From Flavobacterium agricola (GTDB lineage Bacteria > Bacteroidota > Bacteroidia > Flavobacteriales > Flavobacteriaceae): a stretch of 32,000 bases of DNA. The stretch covers positions 391,166 through 423,165 of the forward strand of contig NZ_CP081495.1 of assembly GCF_025919725.1 (NCBI RefSeq). The letters run 5' to 3'. A model generated the notes under the pieces. The model saw only the letters and a list, made by a program, of their open reading frames with translations, was not told the origin of the DNA and did no database searches. Each line of letters begins with the position of its first letter. Position 1 is the first letter of the stretch. Below, in pieces: positions 15,106-21,557 of this stretch. The translations under genes and the position numbers were made by a program.

Positions 15106-15810
15106 ATGAAAAAATTAGTTATTCTTGTTGTTGAAGATGAAAAATTGGTACGTGAACTTTTAATCTCATATATCAGAGAGATTTTGGGTGATATGCAGGT
15201 TGATATTATTACCAGCTCAACCTTTAGCTTGGCTAAACAATTAATACAAACCAATCAACCCGAGCTTGTTTTTTTAGATATTAGATTGCAAGATGCGAAC
15301 AGTTTTGAACAAATAGAAGAACTAAATATTAAAGATTTTAAATTGGTTTTTACAACGGCTTATTCAGAACATATGGCCGATTCTATTAACAATTTAGGTT
15401 GTTTTGGGTATTTGTTAAAACCGATGAGTTTACAAAGCGTAAAAACAATTTTTGATCGTTTTTTTGCCGAACGTGCTTTACCCGAATACAAAAAAATAAC
15501 CCTAAAAATTGCTAACAAACAAGTTTTAGTTTCAGAAAACGAAATTATTTATTGCCAAGCCGATAATAATTATTGCAACATGTTTTTTAAAGGAGAAAAG
15601 CAGCTGTTTACTAAAACCTTAAAAGAATTTGAAAAAACATTATCGCCCGATTTGTTTGTTCGTGCGCACCGATCGTATTTAGTAAATAAAAACTACATTA
15701 AAAGTTTTGATGCAGCCAACAATAAAATTCTTGTTGAAGTTGATGATGTTGCACCGATTGAAATTCCTGTTTCTGAATCACACCGTAAAAAAGTTTCCGA
15801 ATTATTTTAA
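15106..15810 (+). CDS. LytR/AlgR-family response regulator (receiver domain plus LytTR DNA-binding domain)
   Basis: Receiver motifs (VVEDE, LVFLDIRL, LLKP) plus a C-terminal LytTR domain (IIYCQADNNYCNMFF...FVRAHRSYLVN). Confidence 0.9.
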   Translation: MKKLVILVVEDEKLVRELLISYIREILGDMQVDIITSSTFSLAKQLIQTNQPELVFLDIRLQDANSFEQIEELNIKDFKLVFTTAYSEHMADSINNLGCFGYLLKPMSLQSVKTIFDRFFAERALPEYKKITLKIANKQVLVSENEIIYCQADNNYCNMFFKGEKQLFTKTLKEFEKTLSPDLFVRAHRSYLVNKNYIKSFDAANNKILVEVDDVAPIEIPVSESHRKKVSELF

Positions 15811-18779
15811 TGCGCCATTTCCTTTCCTTTTTCTTTTTACTTTGTAGCTTTTTAACTTTAGCTCAAGATTTATATACGCGTAACATTCACGTAAATAACG
15901 GCCTGTTTTCTAACAATGTTAATAAAACTTTTGTTGACTCTGAAGGGCGTGTTTGGATAGGTTCTAGGGGAGGGCTGGCTCGTAAAATAATGGATAAGTT
16001 TGAATTACATCCGGCCGCACAAGAAAAAAAGTTTAATAATATTTTTGATATTACTGAAGACGCCCAAGGCAATATTTGGGCCGGAAGTTATGGTTTAGGC
16101 GTACTTTTACTTAGCGAAAGCGAATCGCGTATTTTTAATACCGATACCGGATTAGTTTCAGATTTTGTTCGCAATTTAATTGTATTAAATAACCGCGTTT
16201 ATGTAGGTACAAAAGATGGATTGTCAGTTATTTCGATAACCGATTTTACGATTCAAAATTTTACACCGCAAAGTAAAGATCAAAAAGATGATCGCAGCTT
16301 TGCTATTACATCAGTGTTTGAGCTGAATCAGCAAATTTACGTTTCAACCTTAAACGACGGGCTTTTTAAAATAGAACATAATAAATTGGTTTTGGTTGAT
16401 GCTTTTGCTGGGCATCGCATCAATTTTTTTAAAACTATAAATCACGAACTTTACTTTAGCTCTTCGCTCGGATTTTATAAGTTAAATCCACAAACATTTA
16501 AGCCCTTAAAAAGTTATAATTTACCCGATGTACGCGAAATGATTCCGCTAAACGGTGCTTTTTTATTGTTGCGATCAAGCATGGTCGATTTTACGGGCGG
16601 TTTGTATCAACTTAAAAACGAAACGTTAACCAATTTTAATACAAATTTTAATTTAAAATCGTTAGAATACAAATCGTTTGCGTACGATTCTGTTTTTGAT
16701 AGGCTATATATTGGCAGTAATGAAGATGGTTTATTTATTTCTGAATTAAATAATAGCATTCAGTACAATCGTAATTTTAAAGAAATAGAAGCCATGCTTT
16801 TTGCCGCTGATAAAAAGTTTATATTTCATGAAAATGGCTTATCTATTTTAAAAAATAATCAAGAAATAAAAACAATTCCTAATAGCCAATTTTTTTCGTA
16901 CCAAAAAGCCAATCCATTAAATACAGCAAACAAGCAAAAACTTTTTAAGTTACTACCTTTTTATCCTGAAGTAGAAAATTTTACATTAAAATTTTATAAA
17001 GATATTTACTTTAAAGATTCTTTTTTTTGGGTTCCAACCAATATTGGTATTTTTAAAATGGATTTAAATGGGAATTTTGTTGCCTATTTGCCTTTGCATG
17101 TGTACCATTTTTATATTCAAAATAATCAGTTGGTTGCACCAATTCCGCATAATGGTACGGTATTAATTTCCAATTTACAAACTTTAGATCATCAATATTT
17201 TTCGGATTTCGAAAACGGAAAATCACATCCGTTTACACCATTAAACGTGGTTGATATGGCCGTAACCGATTCGGCTGTATATTTTGCTTCGGCTTTAGAA
17301 GGAATTTATCAGTTTAAAAACGGAAAATTTACTTCGTGGCGAACCGAAAAATGGTTTTCTGTTAACAAAATCAAACGCATTACCATTAATTCAAAAGGGC
17401 AACTTATTGTTGTTTCTGACTTTAATGATATTTACGTTTTTAATTTAGATGATCCTAAACCAACGCTAATAAAAACAAAAGATTTTAAAAAAATAAAAGG
17501 TGCATCTACCCAATTTGTTGAAGAATTAGACGGCGTTTTATACGTAGGTACCAACTTAGGAATTAATGTTTTTTATATTGATGGCAACGAAAAAAAATAT
17601 TTTTTTATTGACCACGAACAAGGTTTTACCAATAGCGAAAAAAACACGGCAATTTCGCATCAAAACCAAATGTATATTTTAAGTTCTACCGGATATTTTT
17701 ATATAGATAACAGCTATTTTAAAAACAACCGAAACTTTACTGCTAATGTTATGTTAGCTAAATTTACTATTAACGATACCGATAAAATTGCGCAGATAAC
17801 AGATGCCGATAACATTCAGCCATTTGCATTAACTCACGATGAAAATAATATATTTATTGAGTTTTTTTTAGATAAGGTTCGTTTTCCTAACAAGCTAAGT
17901 TATTATTACCAATTGCATGAAGATGGCGAATGGATAGAAGTGCTGCATGACCGTAAAATTTATTTACCTTACTTGGCTCCGGGCGAATATAAATTGGCTT
18001 TAAAAATTATTGATAACGATTCGAGCACCGAAATTACTGAGCCAATTATTCAGTTTAAAATTAAAGAAGCTTTTTATAATACGTTGTGGTTTACCGTAAT
18101 TTGTTTGTTGGTTGCCGGTGCAATTTCGTACATCAGCTTTAGCTCGTTTAAAAAGAAAAAGAAAAAAGAAATTCAGTTTTTAGAATTAAAACATCAGGTT
18201 TTAATTTCACAATTAGATGCTCATTTTTTATTTAATATTTTAAGCGCGATTAAATATTTAAAAAGAACAGCCGATGGCCCTGCTGCCGATGAGGTAATTG
18301 ATTTATTTTCCGATTTTATTCGAAAAACCTTAGTTTTTACTAATGCTAACAAAATTACTTTAAATCAGGATATTTCATATTTAAAAAATTACGTTGATTT
18401 GGTAAATTTAGGCCGTGATGAACCTGTTGAATTTACAACCAAAATTGCAGCTGATATTAATATAGATCAGGTTGAGGTATTGCCAATTTTGATGCAACCT
18501 TTTGTAGAAAATTGTATGAAATATGCTTTTCCAGAATCTATTTCACATCCAAAAATCACTTTAATTATTTCGCGTTATCCCCAAGGGTTAAAATTTGAAT
18601 TGGTAGATAACGGCGTTGGTTTTCAGGTAGAAAAACAAGATGTAAAATCCGAAAAACAATCGCTTGGAATCAGCATTGTTGCCAACCGTTTGCAAATTCA
18701 TAATAAAATAACCAAACAAGGGCTGCATATTAGTTCAGATTCTACCGGTACAAAAGTTGAAGTTTTTTACGAACAATAA
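15810..18779 (+). CDS. Sensor histidine kinase with a periplasmic two-component-regulator propeller and Y_Y_Y domain, fused to a LytS/YehU-type His_kinase and HATPase_c
   Basis: Signal peptide, then repeated propeller motifs (VWIGSRGGL, IWAGSYGLGV, VYVGTKDGL) and a Y_Y_Y-like segment (LSYYYQLHEDGEWIEV...PGEYKLALKI). These are followed by one TM helix, the H-box region QLDAHFLFNILSAI and an ATPase N/G box (ELVDNGVGF). The start overlaps the response regulator stop (TAATG). Confidence 0.85.
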   Translation: MRHFLSFFFLLCSFLTLAQDLYTRNIHVNNGLFSNNVNKTFVDSEGRVWIGSRGGLARKIMDKFELHPAAQEKKFNNIFDITEDAQGNIWAGSYGLGVLLLSESESRIFNTDTGLVSDFVRNLIVLNNRVYVGTKDGLSVISITDFTIQNFTPQSKDQKDDRSFAITSVFELNQQIYVSTLNDGLFKIEHNKLVLVDAFAGHRINFFKTINHELYFSSSLGFYKLNPQTFKPLKSYNLPDVREMIPLNGAFLLLRSSMVDFTGGLYQLKNETLTNFNTNFNLKSLEYKSFAYDSVFDRLYIGSNEDGLFISELNNSIQYNRNFKEIEAMLFAADKKFIFHENGLSILKNNQEIKTIPNSQFFSYQKANPLNTANKQKLFKLLPFYPEVENFTLKFYKDIYFKDSFFWVPTNIGIFKMDLNGNFVAYLPLHVYHFYIQNNQLVAPIPHNGTVLISNLQTLDHQYFSDFENGKSHPFTPLNVVDMAVTDSAVYFASALEGIYQFKNGKFTSWRTEKWFSVNKIKRITINSKGQLIVVSDFNDIYVFNLDDPKPTLIKTKDFKKIKGASTQFVEELDGVLYVGTNLGINVFYIDGNEKKYFFIDHEQGFTNSEKNTAISHQNQMYILSSTGYFYIDNSYFKNNRNFTANVMLAKFTINDTDKIAQITDADNIQPFALTHDENNIFIEFFLDKVRFPNKLSYYYQLHEDGEWIEVLHDRKIYLPYLAPGEYKLALKIIDNDSSTEITEPIIQFKIKEAFYNTLWFTVICLLVAGAISYISFSSFKKKKKKEIQFLELKHQVLISQLDAHFLFNILSAIKYLKRTADGPAADEVIDLFSDFIRKTLVFTNANKITLNQDISYLKNYVDLVNLGRDEPVEFTTKIAADINIDQVEVLPILMQPFVENCMKYAFPESISHPKITLIISRYPQGLKFELVDNGVGFQVEKQDVKSEKQSLGISIVANRLQIHNKITKQGLHISSDSTGTKVEVFYEQ

Positions 18780-18858
18780 TTAAAAGCTGTGCTTACTCAG
18801 TTTTTTATGTGGTTCACCAAATATAAAAGTACAACTTCTGGTTTATAAATAATTTTAT

Positions 18859-18887
18859 GCCGTTACAATATTGTAACGGCTTTTTTT
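18859..18887 (+). terminator. Strong Rho-independent terminator after the two-component operon
   Basis: Perfect 22-nt palindrome gccgttacaatattgtaacggc followed by T7. Confidence 0.75.
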
Positions 18888-18896
18888 ATTATACCA

Positions 18897-20615
18897 ATGG
18901 CAGTAACTTTTTATCCAGAAGAACAAGCGATTGCGTTTGTTGAAAATCAAATTTATACCCCAGAACAAACCCATTTAAAAGGAGAATGGATGATTTACCG
19001 AGAATTAAAACAAGCGTTAAGCAGCAGTAAAGATTCTTGGTACGTGTGGCATAATTATCATTCGGTAATTAAAGAAAATCACGAAGAATTAGGAAAGGTT
19101 GAAACCGAAATTGATTTTATTATTTTAAGTAAATACGGGCTTTTAGTTTTAGAAGTTAAAGGAGGCAAAATTGTTATTGCCAACGACAAATTTTATTGCC
19201 AAACAGCAAACCAAGAACTATCTGAAATTCAGAATCCGTTTATTCAAGCTCAAAAAAGCAAATATGTGCTTTTAAATCAGTATTTACAGCAATTTAAAAA
19301 CATTTTGGTAACGTATGCGGTTGCATTTCCATCGCTAGCTGTTGCTTTAAATCATCCAAAATACAACGAAAAGGCAATTTATAGTAAATATACCAAAGAT
19401 TATACGTTTGCAGATATTGAACAATTTATTGTTTACAACCTCAAACAATCAGCCCAAAATTTACAACAAACCAATCGGTATTTTCCAGAAAACTTGTCGG
19501 ATGCAGTAATGGCATCGGTAGCCAAAAGGTTTAATGTGAATTTATCTGATGCCAATGTTTTTGAATCTTTTAATGTTGATTTTTGGGCGCATACCGAAAG
19601 TTTTAAAATTATTGATGCCTTGCAAGAAAATCCCCGTATCATGGTACAAGGCGATCCCGGAACCGGAAAAACAACTTTAGCTTTGGCTTATGCCGAAAAA
19701 AACAAACAATTTTCGGGCTTGTACGTGTGTTGGAATAAATTATTAAAAACCAGCAATGCATTAAAATTTAAAACCCGTGGGTTAGATGTTGATGTGATAA
19801 GTTATTACGATTTTCTGCTTCAACATTTACCTAATTTAACAGTTGTTCAAGCCAATACATTTTCTTACGAACAATTTGGGCAAGCTATGCAAAACGCTAT
19901 AACGAATTATTTAGCCCAACAAGGTAAAACGTACGATTATATTATTGTTGATGAAGCGCAAGATTTGTTTGATCGAAATCTAGATTATTTTATTGATAAA
20001 ATGTGCGTAACGGGTAAAGGTTTAACCCAAGGTCGATCGTTGCTTTTGTATGATTTAAAACAAGGTTTTGATGCCGAAAAAAGAGAAGTTGATGAATTTG
20101 AGTTTCTGTTAAAACAATATTACACCCATTATCAATTAAACGGAAATAAGCGCAGTATTGTAAACGAAGAGTTGCAAAACTTTGCTTTAGATGTAAGTTA
20201 TCAACCTTTAGATGTTTTAACACCAACTTATTATAACAATAAAAATGCTGTACTATATAAACCAGTAAATGGTGCTAAAGAATTTAAAAAATTAGTGAAT
20301 TTGTATAAAATGAATGTTTTAAAAGCAGATTCATCCTTGTCTGAAAGCGATATTGTTTTGTTGTTTCAATCATCAATATTAAAAAACTACCCACAAATTG
20401 TAAGGGTTTTAAAAGAATTAGAAATTGAAGAATTGACTGAACTTAATTTTGAAACCAAGTATTTAAAATATTCTACTCCAATTAAATTTAAAGGTTTAGA
20501 AAAGAAAAATGTTGTTTTGGTTGTTTCTTCACCCAATGCAACAAGTAAGTTTGAATGGTACATGGGCATAACGCGTGCCGTACAAACAATTCATATGGTG
20601 CATTTAAATTTTTAA
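18897..20615 (+). CDS. NERD (PD-(D/E)xK-type nuclease-related) domain fused to an SF1/UvrD-like P-loop helicase core
   Basis: N-terminal NERD signature TEIDFIILSKYGLLVLEVKGG (D...EVK). Walker A is GDPGTGKTT and Walker B is IIVDEAQD. The C-terminal UvrD_C-like motifs are FKGLEKKNVVLV and MGITRAVQTIHMV. Hairpin terminators flank the gene on both sides. Confidence 0.8.
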   Translation: MAVTFYPEEQAIAFVENQIYTPEQTHLKGEWMIYRELKQALSSSKDSWYVWHNYHSVIKENHEELGKVETEIDFIILSKYGLLVLEVKGGKIVIANDKFYCQTANQELSEIQNPFIQAQKSKYVLLNQYLQQFKNILVTYAVAFPSLAVALNHPKYNEKAIYSKYTKDYTFADIEQFIVYNLKQSAQNLQQTNRYFPENLSDAVMASVAKRFNVNLSDANVFESFNVDFWAHTESFKIIDALQENPRIMVQGDPGTGKTTLALAYAEKNKQFSGLYVCWNKLLKTSNALKFKTRGLDVDVISYYDFLLQHLPNLTVVQANTFSYEQFGQAMQNAITNYLAQQGKTYDYIIVDEAQDLFDRNLDYFIDKMCVTGKGLTQGRSLLLYDLKQGFDAEKREVDEFEFLLKQYYTHYQLNGNKRSIVNEELQNFALDVSYQPLDVLTPTYYNNKNAVLYKPVNGAKEFKKLVNLYKMNVLKADSSLSESDIVLLFQSSILKNYPQIVRVLKELEIEELTELNFETKYLKYSTPIKFKGLEKKNVVLVVSSPNATSKFEWYMGITRAVQTIHMVHLNF

Positions 20616-20635
20616 AAAGACACAAATTGTCTTTT
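20615..20635 (+). terminator. Weak AT-rich hairpin terminator after the NERD-helicase gene
   Basis: aaaagaca-caaat-tgtctttt begins right at the stop codon. The stem is short and AT-rich. Confidence 0.35.
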
Positions 20636-20643
20636 GTAATATA

Positions 20644-20651
20644 TAGATTTG
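20644..20651 (+). promoter_or_regulatory. Bacteroidetes-type -7 promoter box (TAnnTTTG)
   Basis: Exact match tagatttg, 25 nt upstream of the ATG at 20676. Confidence 0.35.
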
Positions 20652-20675
20652 CCTTAAACCTAAAAACTTATAAAA

Positions 20676-21035
20676 ATGAAAAATAACGAAAACCAAAAAG
20701 CTTTAGAAATGTTTGATCAATTCAAACAAAAAAAAGTAAACGATCAAGACATTCATGATGCCGAAGCAAAAGCTAAAAACTTAGGTAAAATTGTAAAAGA
20801 TTTTAGATTGCTTATCGCTATGTTTAAAGATGGCATAAGCGGTGTTTATAGCATTTCGGGTTTAACTTTAGCTACGCTTGCAGGTGCAATTTTGTACGTT
20901 GTTTCACCAATTGATGCAGTGCCTGATTTTATTCCTTTTGTTGGTTGGTTAGACGATGTTGCTGTAATTACTTTTGTATTAGCTAACTTAAATTCAGAAA
21001 TCAGTAAATACAAAAAGTTTAAAAAAATAGAATAA
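20676..21035 (+). CDS. DUF1232 (YkvA-like) small membrane protein
   Basis: Signature SPIDAVPDFIPFVGWLDDVAVI flanked by hydrophobic segments; 119 aa. Confidence 0.75.
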   Translation: MKNNENQKALEMFDQFKQKKVNDQDIHDAEAKAKNLGKIVKDFRLLIAMFKDGISGVYSISGLTLATLAGAILYVVSPIDAVPDFIPFVGWLDDVAVITFVLANLNSEISKYKKFKKIE

Positions 21036-21096
21036 GCATTCACTCAAAAAATCAAGGCGTTCACTAAAATGTTAAATTTTTAAGAATGACTTGTTT

Positions 21097-21104
21097 TACT
21101 TTTG
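21097..21104 (+). promoter_or_regulatory. Bacteroidetes-type -7 promoter box (TAnnTTTG)
   Basis: Exact match tacttttg, 22 nt upstream of the ATG at 21126. Confidence 0.35.
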
Positions 21105-21125
21105 CTGTGAAAATTACTAGTAACT

Positions 21126-21368
21126 ATGCCAAATTATTATTGTGAATATTGCGGTGTTCAAGCGTCAAGTATAATTTCTTTAACTTCTGCAAGTTGTTTT
21201 AAAAACCCAAACGGAGGGAAACATAAACTTTACGAAGGCACTGAAAAAAACATGTACTATTGCAAGTACTGCGGTATTTCAACCGGTTCAATCTTGCAAC
21301 TTACTTCATCTTCATGCTTTAAGCATCCAAATGGCAATTTAAAAGGGAAACATGCGCCAGCATTATAA
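21126..21368 (+). CDS. Small protein made of two tandem Cx2C-x16-C-x(8-11)-H modules (putative zinc-binding); family not recognised
   Basis: Two roughly 35-aa repeats: YYCEYCGVQASSIISLTSASCFKNPNGGKH and YYCKYCGISTGSILQLTSSSCFKHPNGNLKGKH. The protein sequence is conserved while codons differ synonymously (tgt/tgc, tat/tac, tta/ctt, tct/tca), which supports a real coding gene. It has its own -7 box and a downstream terminator. Confidence 0.7.
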   Translation: MPNYYCEYCGVQASSIISLTSASCFKNPNGGKHKLYEGTEKNMYYCKYCGISTGSILQLTSSSCFKHPNGNLKGKHAPAL

Positions 21369-21451
21369 CCTTACAAAAATATTAAAGTAAATAGCAGTTA
21401 TCCTTCTGTTATTTCAAGGGGGAAATAAAAAGGAACATTTGAGGGGAAATG

Positions 21452-21479
21452 CGCCTAGTTTTTATAAGCTAGGCGTTTT
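21452..21479 (+). terminator. Rho-independent terminator
   Basis: cgcctag-(10-nt loop)-ctaggcg followed by TTTT. Confidence 0.6.
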
Positions 21480-21557
21480 CATTTTATAATTATTGCAAAA
21501 AAAAGTTTCGTTTTTTTAAAAATCCCTTAACTTTACCACTCAAATAAACCTCAAAAT

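Follow-up and report, generated by a model that had tools for sequence, protein, structure and literature searches.

The window analyzed here, a stretch of 32,000 nucleotides from Flavobacterium agricola, carries at positions 18897-20615 of its + strand a gene whose 572-residue product, P0001, is a two-module enzyme, with an N-terminal NERD-type PD-(D/E)xK nuclease, a C-terminal compact superfamily 1 (SF1) helicase and the motifs of both intact. The gene is rare. Most lineages of its family are embedded in operons that resemble the antiphage system DISARM, and P0001 belongs to a single clade of copies that stand alone. On balance, we favor the interpretation that P0001 is an autonomous, ATP-driven nuclease-helicase that acts in defence.

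A NERD nuclease fused to an SF1 helicase

The features of the gene and its protein (residue numbers are those of P0001) are as follows.

18897..20615, + strand: NERD-SF1 helicase gene (P0001), 572 residues, the single long open reading frame (ORF) in that stretch
18978..19331, + strand: NERD / PD-(D/E)xK nuclease domain (residues 28-145), from Pfam match, family alignment and domain model
19113..19160, + strand: catalytic D73 ... E86-V-K88 motif, from sequence and family alignment
19605..20612, + strand: SF1 helicase core (residues ~237-572), DUF2075/Schlafen-group-3-like, from Pfam and fold, with SF1B enzymes as best fold matches
19650..19676, + strand: Walker A (residues 252-260), with G252, G255, G257, K258, T259 and T260 invariant
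19941..19964, + strand: motif II IIVDEAQD (DExQD), with D352, E353, Q355 and D356 invariant
20490..20579, + strand: C-terminal SF1 motifs KGLE (residues 532-535) and TRA (residues 559-561), from the family alignment

The original prediction, made by a model from the sequence letters, had described a 572-residue ORF that fuses a NERD nuclease to an SF1 ATPase. The same single ORF was recovered on the + strand, and every motif named in that description is present (EIDFIIL...LLVLEVKGG at residues 71-90, GDPGTGKT at 252-259, IIVDEAQD at 349-356 and TRA at 559-561). The fusion itself is borne out by the Pfam NERD match, the SF1 fold and the intact catalytic motifs. All members of an alignment of 25 diverse homologues share the start methionine of P0001, and the full-length AlphaFold2 model has a pLDDT of 82.

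Profile searches support the NERD assignment. The Pfam NERD model (PF08378) matches residues 28-145 over profile positions 4-111 of 111 (E=1.6e-14, 54.8 bits against a cut-off of 22.1). The residues of the PD-(D/E)xK/NERD site (E30, D73, E86-V-K88 and Q117) are invariant across the 25 diverse family members. When residues 1-235 were modelled separately (pTM 0.79), they gave an alpha-beta-beta-beta-alpha-beta core, and the predicted secondary structure places D73 and E86/K88 at the ends of strands 68-78 and 81-87. A fold search with this domain retrieved PD-(D/E)xK nucleases only (Bax1, Can2, McrC, restriction enzymes, Hjc and Cas4), all weakly (best E=6e-3) and none at E <= 0.001. This supports the fold class and indicates that the domain has no close solved relative, in agreement with sequence searches of the PDB.

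Pfam matches over the C-terminal 330 residues are to P-loop and SF1 models, namely AAA_22, PhoH, SLFN-g3_helicase/DUF2075 (SLFN-g3_helicase at 25.6 bits, cut-off 24) and, at the C-terminus, the end of Viral_helicase1 (22.9 bits, cut-off 21). In addition to the Walker A and motif II residues listed above, R419, K532-G-L-E535 and R560-A561 are invariant among the 25 members, and T559 is nearly so. KGLE and TRA are typical C-terminal motifs of SF1. Foldseek searches of the PDB returned SLFN11/14, Upf1, RecD2, Sen1, Dna2 and UvrD (E=1e-15 to 1e-8, probability 1.00), with IGHMBP2 and RecD of RecBCD as further neighbours and UvrD ranking lower. A single-sequence search of the PDB with P0001 gave no significant match, and a profile search reached SLFN11 in the P-loop region only. 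The fold neighbours are mostly SF1B enzymes, which suggests that P0001 translocates 5'-3'.

Most lineages of the family lie in DISARM-like operons

We gathered the genomic contexts of homologues from contigs that encode family members, not from a pattern-based scan of loci. Outside one clade, every homologue with an examined context occupies the second place in a compact DISARM-like operon. The order is a methylase module, the NERD-helicase, a protein of 804-848 residues (hereafter X, ~830 residues), DrmA (1354-1432 residues) and DrmB (728-798 residues). At least 13 loci carry such an operon with a NERD-helicase (L036, L037, L038, L058-L061, L066-L070, L071 and L073), with spans that include the following.

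L036:6280-17743: DISARM-like operon, from Labilibaculum
L037:6293-17743: DISARM-like operon
L058:7316-18800: DISARM-like operon
L071:6246-19612: DISARM-like operon
L073:6658-19614: DISARM-like operon

PADLOC models recognize DrmA (E=3.8e-175) and DrmB (E=5e-57) among the operon proteins. The methylase module consists of a C5 methylase, often matching DrmMII models, with or without Vsr or MutH. A gut-Bacteroidales variant (L066:5241-19664, L069:4741-19749 and L081:1491-7012) lacks a recognizable methylase and begins with unannotated proteins of ~475 and ~228 residues. Neither X nor the gut-type upstream proteins of 471 and 228 residues had a Pfam or PADLOC match. The original prediction had proposed the neighbourhoods of homologues as a check on a defence role, and with most lineages embedded beside DrmA and DrmB the association with defence is strong.

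P0001 is 27-38% identical to the operon-embedded NERD-helicases over 95-100% of its length (E down to 1e-109). It shares their architecture of ~570-580 residues and has the invariant residues of nuclease and helicase in common with them, but its gene, unlike theirs, does not adjoin a methylase, X, DrmA or DrmB. Neither DrmA, DrmB nor X was found anywhere in the F. agricola genome, which is a complete single contig of 2.71 Mb (99.6% complete).

One operon end was checked (genome G212). There, DrmB is followed by the housekeeping gene XseA and not by a PLD-type DrmC, and the NERD domain is the only recognizable nuclease of that operon. In DISARM, the PLD nuclease DrmC is dispensable, and the nuclease of the system was a mystery to the authors of the DrmAB structure (PMC9142583). 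Given this, the conservation of the NERD-helicase in many operons and the lack of a PLD nuclease at the checked end, the NERD-helicase is an obvious candidate for the missing nuclease of DISARM-like operons.

Stand-alone copies form one clade

A maximum-likelihood tree was built from 133 family members, with the context known for 26 tips (15 stand-alone and 11 DISARM). A branch with an SH-aLRT support of 100 separates all 15 stand-alone copies, P0001 included, from the 11 copies with a DISARM context, which are spread over the other four or five major lineages, including the most divergent one. Since embedded copies lie on all sides, the simplest history is that the stand-alone clade arose by a single escape from a DISARM-like operon. 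By parsimony, P0001 would then descend from a component of a multi-gene DISARM-like system. This departs from the single-gene picture that had been drawn from the window, as does the transcript that the gene probably shares with two others (see below).

The stand-alone clade comprises two subclades, a Myroides type and a P0001 type. Members of the P0001 subclade are 39-47% identical and have varied gene partners. In two of them (P0002 and P0003), a WYL regulator gene lies 15 nt upstream, and genes for a DUF4407 protein, a VWA protein and an Endonuclease_NS_2 protein follow downstream. In genome G190, the gene downstream of the NERD-helicase encodes a DUF1232 protein, as in the window.

In Myroides, the closest homologue (47% identity) lies in a cluster (L015:8854-17015 and L062:274-6788) of DUF6140, WYL, NERD-helicase, DUF4407 (669 residues), a 267-residue protein of unknown type, VWA and Endonuclease_NS_2 genes. 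The cluster resembles a defence-type island, and only its WYL gene had a PADLOC match. Another clade-mate, P0004 (46% identity, L063:2-3947), is encoded in a tight operon of overlapping genes for proteins of 181, 164 and 251 residues, the NERD-helicase and a protein of 142 residues, in which the small proteins had marginal PADLOC matches only (VakA, HEC-01B and PDC-M40B).

An orphan of this kind could be a functionless or decaying gene, a component of a DISARM operon that was stranded without DrmA, DrmB and X and has been kept transiently. The absence of all three partners from the F. agricola genome and the long, compositionally odd branch of P0001 would fit this explanation. We regard it as improbable, as the ORF shows no truncation and retains every catalytic and family-invariant residue, and the stand-alone clade has diversified and is maintained in many species. 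Such diversity and persistence imply long-term purifying selection without the operon.

A more specific version of the defence interpretation is that the stand-alone clade represents a natural "minimal DISARM effector", that is, the nuclease long looked for in DISARM-type systems of Bacteroidota, which would have escaped the operon once and would now serve as an autonomous single-protein defence, perhaps controlled by a LytTR system and paired with DUF1232. We put this forward tentatively, as a possibility that has the odds against it.

A rare and patchy gene

Myroides supplies the closest named homologues of P0001, and the nearest protein overall has 47% identity to it. A first draw of 36 same-genus species held no homologue, and a larger draw of 400 held 16, with at most 39% identity. 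A phylum-wide sample of other high-quality genomes yielded one in 400. An exhaustive search of 1.84 billion representatives gave 52 clusters at E <= 1e-30 and 645 at E <= 1e-10, and the family was found here almost only in Bacteroidota. The core genes of G190 are 60-82% identical to those of F. agricola; its NERD-helicase is only 39% identical to P0001 and lies at a different site. The gene is thus accessory and patchy, and not core and syntenic in all relatives, the pattern that the original prediction had named as contrary to its proposal.

We also looked for the family on mobile elements. It is essentially absent from plasmids, and we did not accept the two distant plasmid matches as evidence of mobility. 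The sole match labelled as phage (GenBank MT837356.1, "Bacteriophage sp.") was rejected, being an unverified 7-kb faecal scaffold with a fragment of the gut-Bacteroidales variant of the operon.

Defence or genome maintenance

The home of the family in DISARM-like operons strengthens the case for defence, which for this orphan is still a proposal. Several observations weigh against the proposal or the history on which it draws. The tree is midpoint-rooted, so the direction from operon to orphan was set by parsimony; 107 of the 133 tips have no known context; and P0001 itself sits on a long branch with atypical composition. An orphaned component may also need the partners that are missing from this genome. 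The Myroides-type copies are found amid housekeeping genes, at either of two chromosomal positions that are conserved, a siting that also fits a maintenance role. Finally, the neighbours of the gene in the window are housekeeping and signalling genes, and no PADLOC match or recognized defence gene was found among the 20 neighbouring ORFs that were scanned (window 6791-29802).

The last two points would also be expected if P0001 maintained the genome, as a Dna2- or AddAB-like nuclease-helicase that processes host DNA ends or stalled forks. P0001 further has the domain order of Dna2, and Dna2, RecD2 and RecD of RecBCD are among its fold neighbours. We consider a maintenance role unlikely. The gene was not found in ~96% of the same-genus species sampled or in 399 of the 400 genomes across the phylum, a rarity unlike that of a repair function. 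Even in the ~17 sampled Myroides-like genomes with the conserved left neighbour, the NERD-helicase is present in only about half. Residues 1-235 contain a single Cys, which leaves no place for an iron-sulfur (Fe-S) cluster of the Dna2/AddB type. All the non-orphan lineages examined sit in a DISARM-like restriction operon.

Transcription and the two-component module

The genes and signals around the NERD-helicase gene in the window are as follows.

15106-15810, + strand: LytTR response regulator, from a domain scan
15810-18779, + strand: Reg_prop/Y_Y_Y LytS-type histidine kinase, from a domain scan
18859..18890, + strand: strong intrinsic terminator after the histidine-kinase gene, with a 9-bp GC-rich stem, a 4-nt loop and a U-run
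20615..20635, + strand: weak A/U-rich hairpin at the stop codon of the NERD-helicase gene (-6.6 kcal/mol, z=-1.3, 21 of 200 shuffles as stable)
20676..21035, + strand: DUF1232 small membrane protein, 119 residues, from a domain scan; probably co-transcribed with the NERD-helicase
21126..21368, + strand: 80-residue CxxC-repeat protein with two ~38-residue CxxC...C...H repeats
21451..21486, + strand: strong terminator, probably closing a three-gene unit, from the terminator scan and folding

The NERD-helicase gene had been described as its own transcription unit, with a strong terminator 10 nt before its ATG and a hairpin at its stop codon. The upstream boundary was confirmed: the terminator (18859-18880 plus the U-run) folds at -13.9 kcal/mol (z=-5.5, none of 200 shuffles as stable) and ends ~7-10 nt before the ATG. 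The closing boundary did not hold up, as the stop-codon hairpin is weak and was not called by the terminator scan. The next strong terminator on the strand (21451-21476) lies past the DUF1232 and 80-residue genes. This arrangement makes a unit of three genes likelier than a unit of one, and the NERD-helicase, DUF1232 and CxxC-repeat genes are probably co-transcribed.

There is no room for a promoter between the upstream terminator and the ATG. A sigma-70-like sequence at 18842-18869 (TTTATA, 16 nt, TACAAT), a consensus match only, overlaps the 5' half of the terminator hairpin, and RNA started from this site would miss the full hairpin and could read into the NERD-helicase gene.

The small genes downstream had been described as unrelated. 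This view did not survive comparison with other genomes. Homologues of the DUF1232 gene are rare (7 of 400 genomes), and in four of the seven it follows a LytTR regulator and a Y_Y_Y histidine kinase, with a CxxC-repeat gene intervening in one. In that genome (G187), a 64%-identical homologue of the CxxC-repeat protein is encoded between the histidine-kinase and DUF1232 genes. The recurrent module has the following spans.

Window 15106-21368: two-component system, NERD-helicase, DUF1232 and CxxC-repeat genes
L076:591-4841: two-component system with DUF1232
L077:1204-6432: two-component system with DUF1232
L079:1849-6400: two-component system with DUF1232
L080:6029-11171: two-component system with DUF1232

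The CxxC-repeat protein of the window had no Pfam or PADLOC match and is probably zinc-binding. Between genomes, the kinases of the module share only 26-28% identity, far less than the core genes do.

The NERD-helicase gene lies exactly between the kinase and DUF1232 genes, so it looks as though it was inserted into a recurrent, fast-evolving accessory module. In G190, the NERD-helicase and DUF1232 genes (39% and 44% identity) are also paired, with an unstructured spacer of 36 nt, at an unrelated site without a two-component system. The pair is either a small mobile cassette or the remnant of a shared ancestral arrangement.

These associations raise the possibility that the LytTR system drives the NERD-helicase, DUF1232 and CxxC-repeat genes as a stress- or envelope-responsive unit in which DUF1232 is the partner, a role that does not exclude defence. 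In its favor, the three genes lie between strong terminators and only a weak hairpin interrupts them, the order of regulator, kinase and DUF1232 recurs in four genomes, and the adjacency of NERD-helicase and DUF1232 recurs in G190 with unrelated flanks, despite the rarity of NERD-helicase (16 of 400) and DUF1232 (7 of 400). We nevertheless think such a unit rather improbable. A strong terminator separates the kinase gene from the NERD-helicase gene, and in the four genomes just mentioned DUF1232 adjoins the two-component system without a NERD-helicase. In all other contexts the NERD-helicase occurs without DUF1232, including those of its closest relatives P0002-P0004, and in G246 the two genes are 1.9 Mb apart.

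On a larger scale, the gene lies near the right-hand end of a segment of ~25 kb. In six congeners, the carbonic anhydrase gene adjoins the orthologue of an F. agricola gene located 3.8 kb before the window. In F. agricola, ~25 kb separate these two genes (387342-412722; window 1-21557 plus ~3.8 kb upstream). A DNA-level search of 60 congeners left the stretch from the kinase gene to the CxxC-repeat gene unmatched except for one weak match inside the kinase gene; the carbonic anhydrase gene was matched in most of the 60, and the ABC genes in all 60. Upstream of the carbonic anhydrase gene, the six congeners have a different gene content, and no close relative was found whose locus is otherwise the same and lacks the NERD-helicase. 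The ~25-kb segment also contains TonB receptor, GntR-aminotransferase, DUF6642, P-type ATPase and Fur genes. Its GC content is slightly lower towards the right end (0.30-0.33), and the block around it appears inverted relative to the six congeners.

A proposed mode of action

For the model that follows, we infer the substrate, the polarity, the defence phenotype and the autonomy from DrmAB. The helicase would engage foreign DNA, during its entry or its replication, at ends or single-stranded stretches, and ATP-driven translocation, probably 5'-3', would feed or position the DNA for the NERD site. The NERD site would then cut and degrade the foreign DNA, which would make the enzyme similar to Nhi and Hna in function and not in ancestry. 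For the operon-embedded relatives, DNA that is unmethylated or has 5' overhangs would be sensed by DrmAB. The enzymes of the orphan clade would have to sense their targets themselves or be controlled through their expression, putatively by the WYL regulator in P0002 and P0003 and possibly by the LytTR system in the window.

The orphan clade matters for the question of how DISARM destroys phage DNA (PMC9142583), as it offers a clean and simple test of whether a DISARM-associated NERD-helicase can act alone. If active alone, P0001 would represent a compact nuclease-helicase defence unrelated by descent to Nhi and Hna, and would be a case of an autonomous effector released by a multi-gene system. 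If inactive alone, it would exemplify an operon component that was left stranded and yet preserved intact.

Comparison with known defence and repair systems

The make-up of class 2 DISARM was reportedly described by Ofir et al. in 2018. It comprises DrmE-DrmA-DrmB-DrmC-DrmMII (PMC9142583). The operons of the relatives of P0001 share genuine DrmA and DrmB with it and differ as follows: X, in the position of DrmE, matches no DrmE model, the one operon end checked lacks a PLD DrmC, and a NERD-helicase is present. Our literature search found no paper on a NERD-SF1 component of DISARM. The nearest published case is TALON, a rare system of Chloroflexota with a separate NERD endonuclease (PMC12458937).

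The best and sole full-length PADLOC match of P0001 is RTasNERD-Hel (residues 23-563, E=3.8e-16, 57 bits), a distant match to a model without a curated cut-off. This family corresponds to "cluster 485", NERD-helicases that accompany 7 of 17 UG34 reverse transcriptases (PMC9226505). As in P0001, the NERD domain comes first and the helicase is C-terminal. Unlike that family, P0001 has no reverse-transcriptase domain encoded among its 20 scanned neighbours, and no reverse transcriptase was present in any homologue context examined.

The coupling of a PD-(D/E)xK nuclease to a helicase motor is shared with Dna2/AddAB and with Hna. Dna2 has the same domain order (PD-(D/E)xK, then SF1B) and is a Foldseek neighbour of P0001. 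Dna2 and AddB, however, carry an Fe-S cluster and are widely conserved, whereas P0001 lacks the four-Cys set and is rare (4% of the same-genus species sampled). Hna is an SF2 helicase with its nuclease at the C-terminus (PMC13381803), in contrast to the SF1 motor and N-terminal NERD domain of P0001.

The original prediction had offered the Nhi (nuclease-helicase immunity) proteins as an example of antiphage polypeptides that combine the two activities. Nhi of Staphylococcus epidermidis (Bari et al. 2022, cited through PMC11470126 and PMC11084316) and P0001 are alike in that a single polypeptide carries nuclease and SF1 helicase modules. Membership in the Nhi family is nonetheless extremely improbable, and we rejected it: a search of P0001 with the PADLOC Nhi model (PDLC02372) found nothing at E <= 1, the PADLOC model that fits it best over its full length is that of another family (RTasNERD-Hel), and the evolutionary home of the family of P0001 is the DISARM-like operon. 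The Nhi model matches the G190 homologue weakly, in the helicase core only (E=3.4e-7). The two proteins thus differ in evolutionary origin, with no detectable profile similarity of P0001 to Nhi. They also differ in setting: Nhi lies in an SCC-linked defence cassette, whereas the P0001 gene lies among signalling and housekeeping genes. Nhi is reported to block the accumulation of phage DNA and to be triggered by phage replication intermediates or by SSB (PMC11084316, PMC10732053). The likeness that our working model proposes is one of action, in which P0001 would degrade foreign DNA without sequence specificity, as is proposed for Nhi (PMC11470126, PMC11084316).

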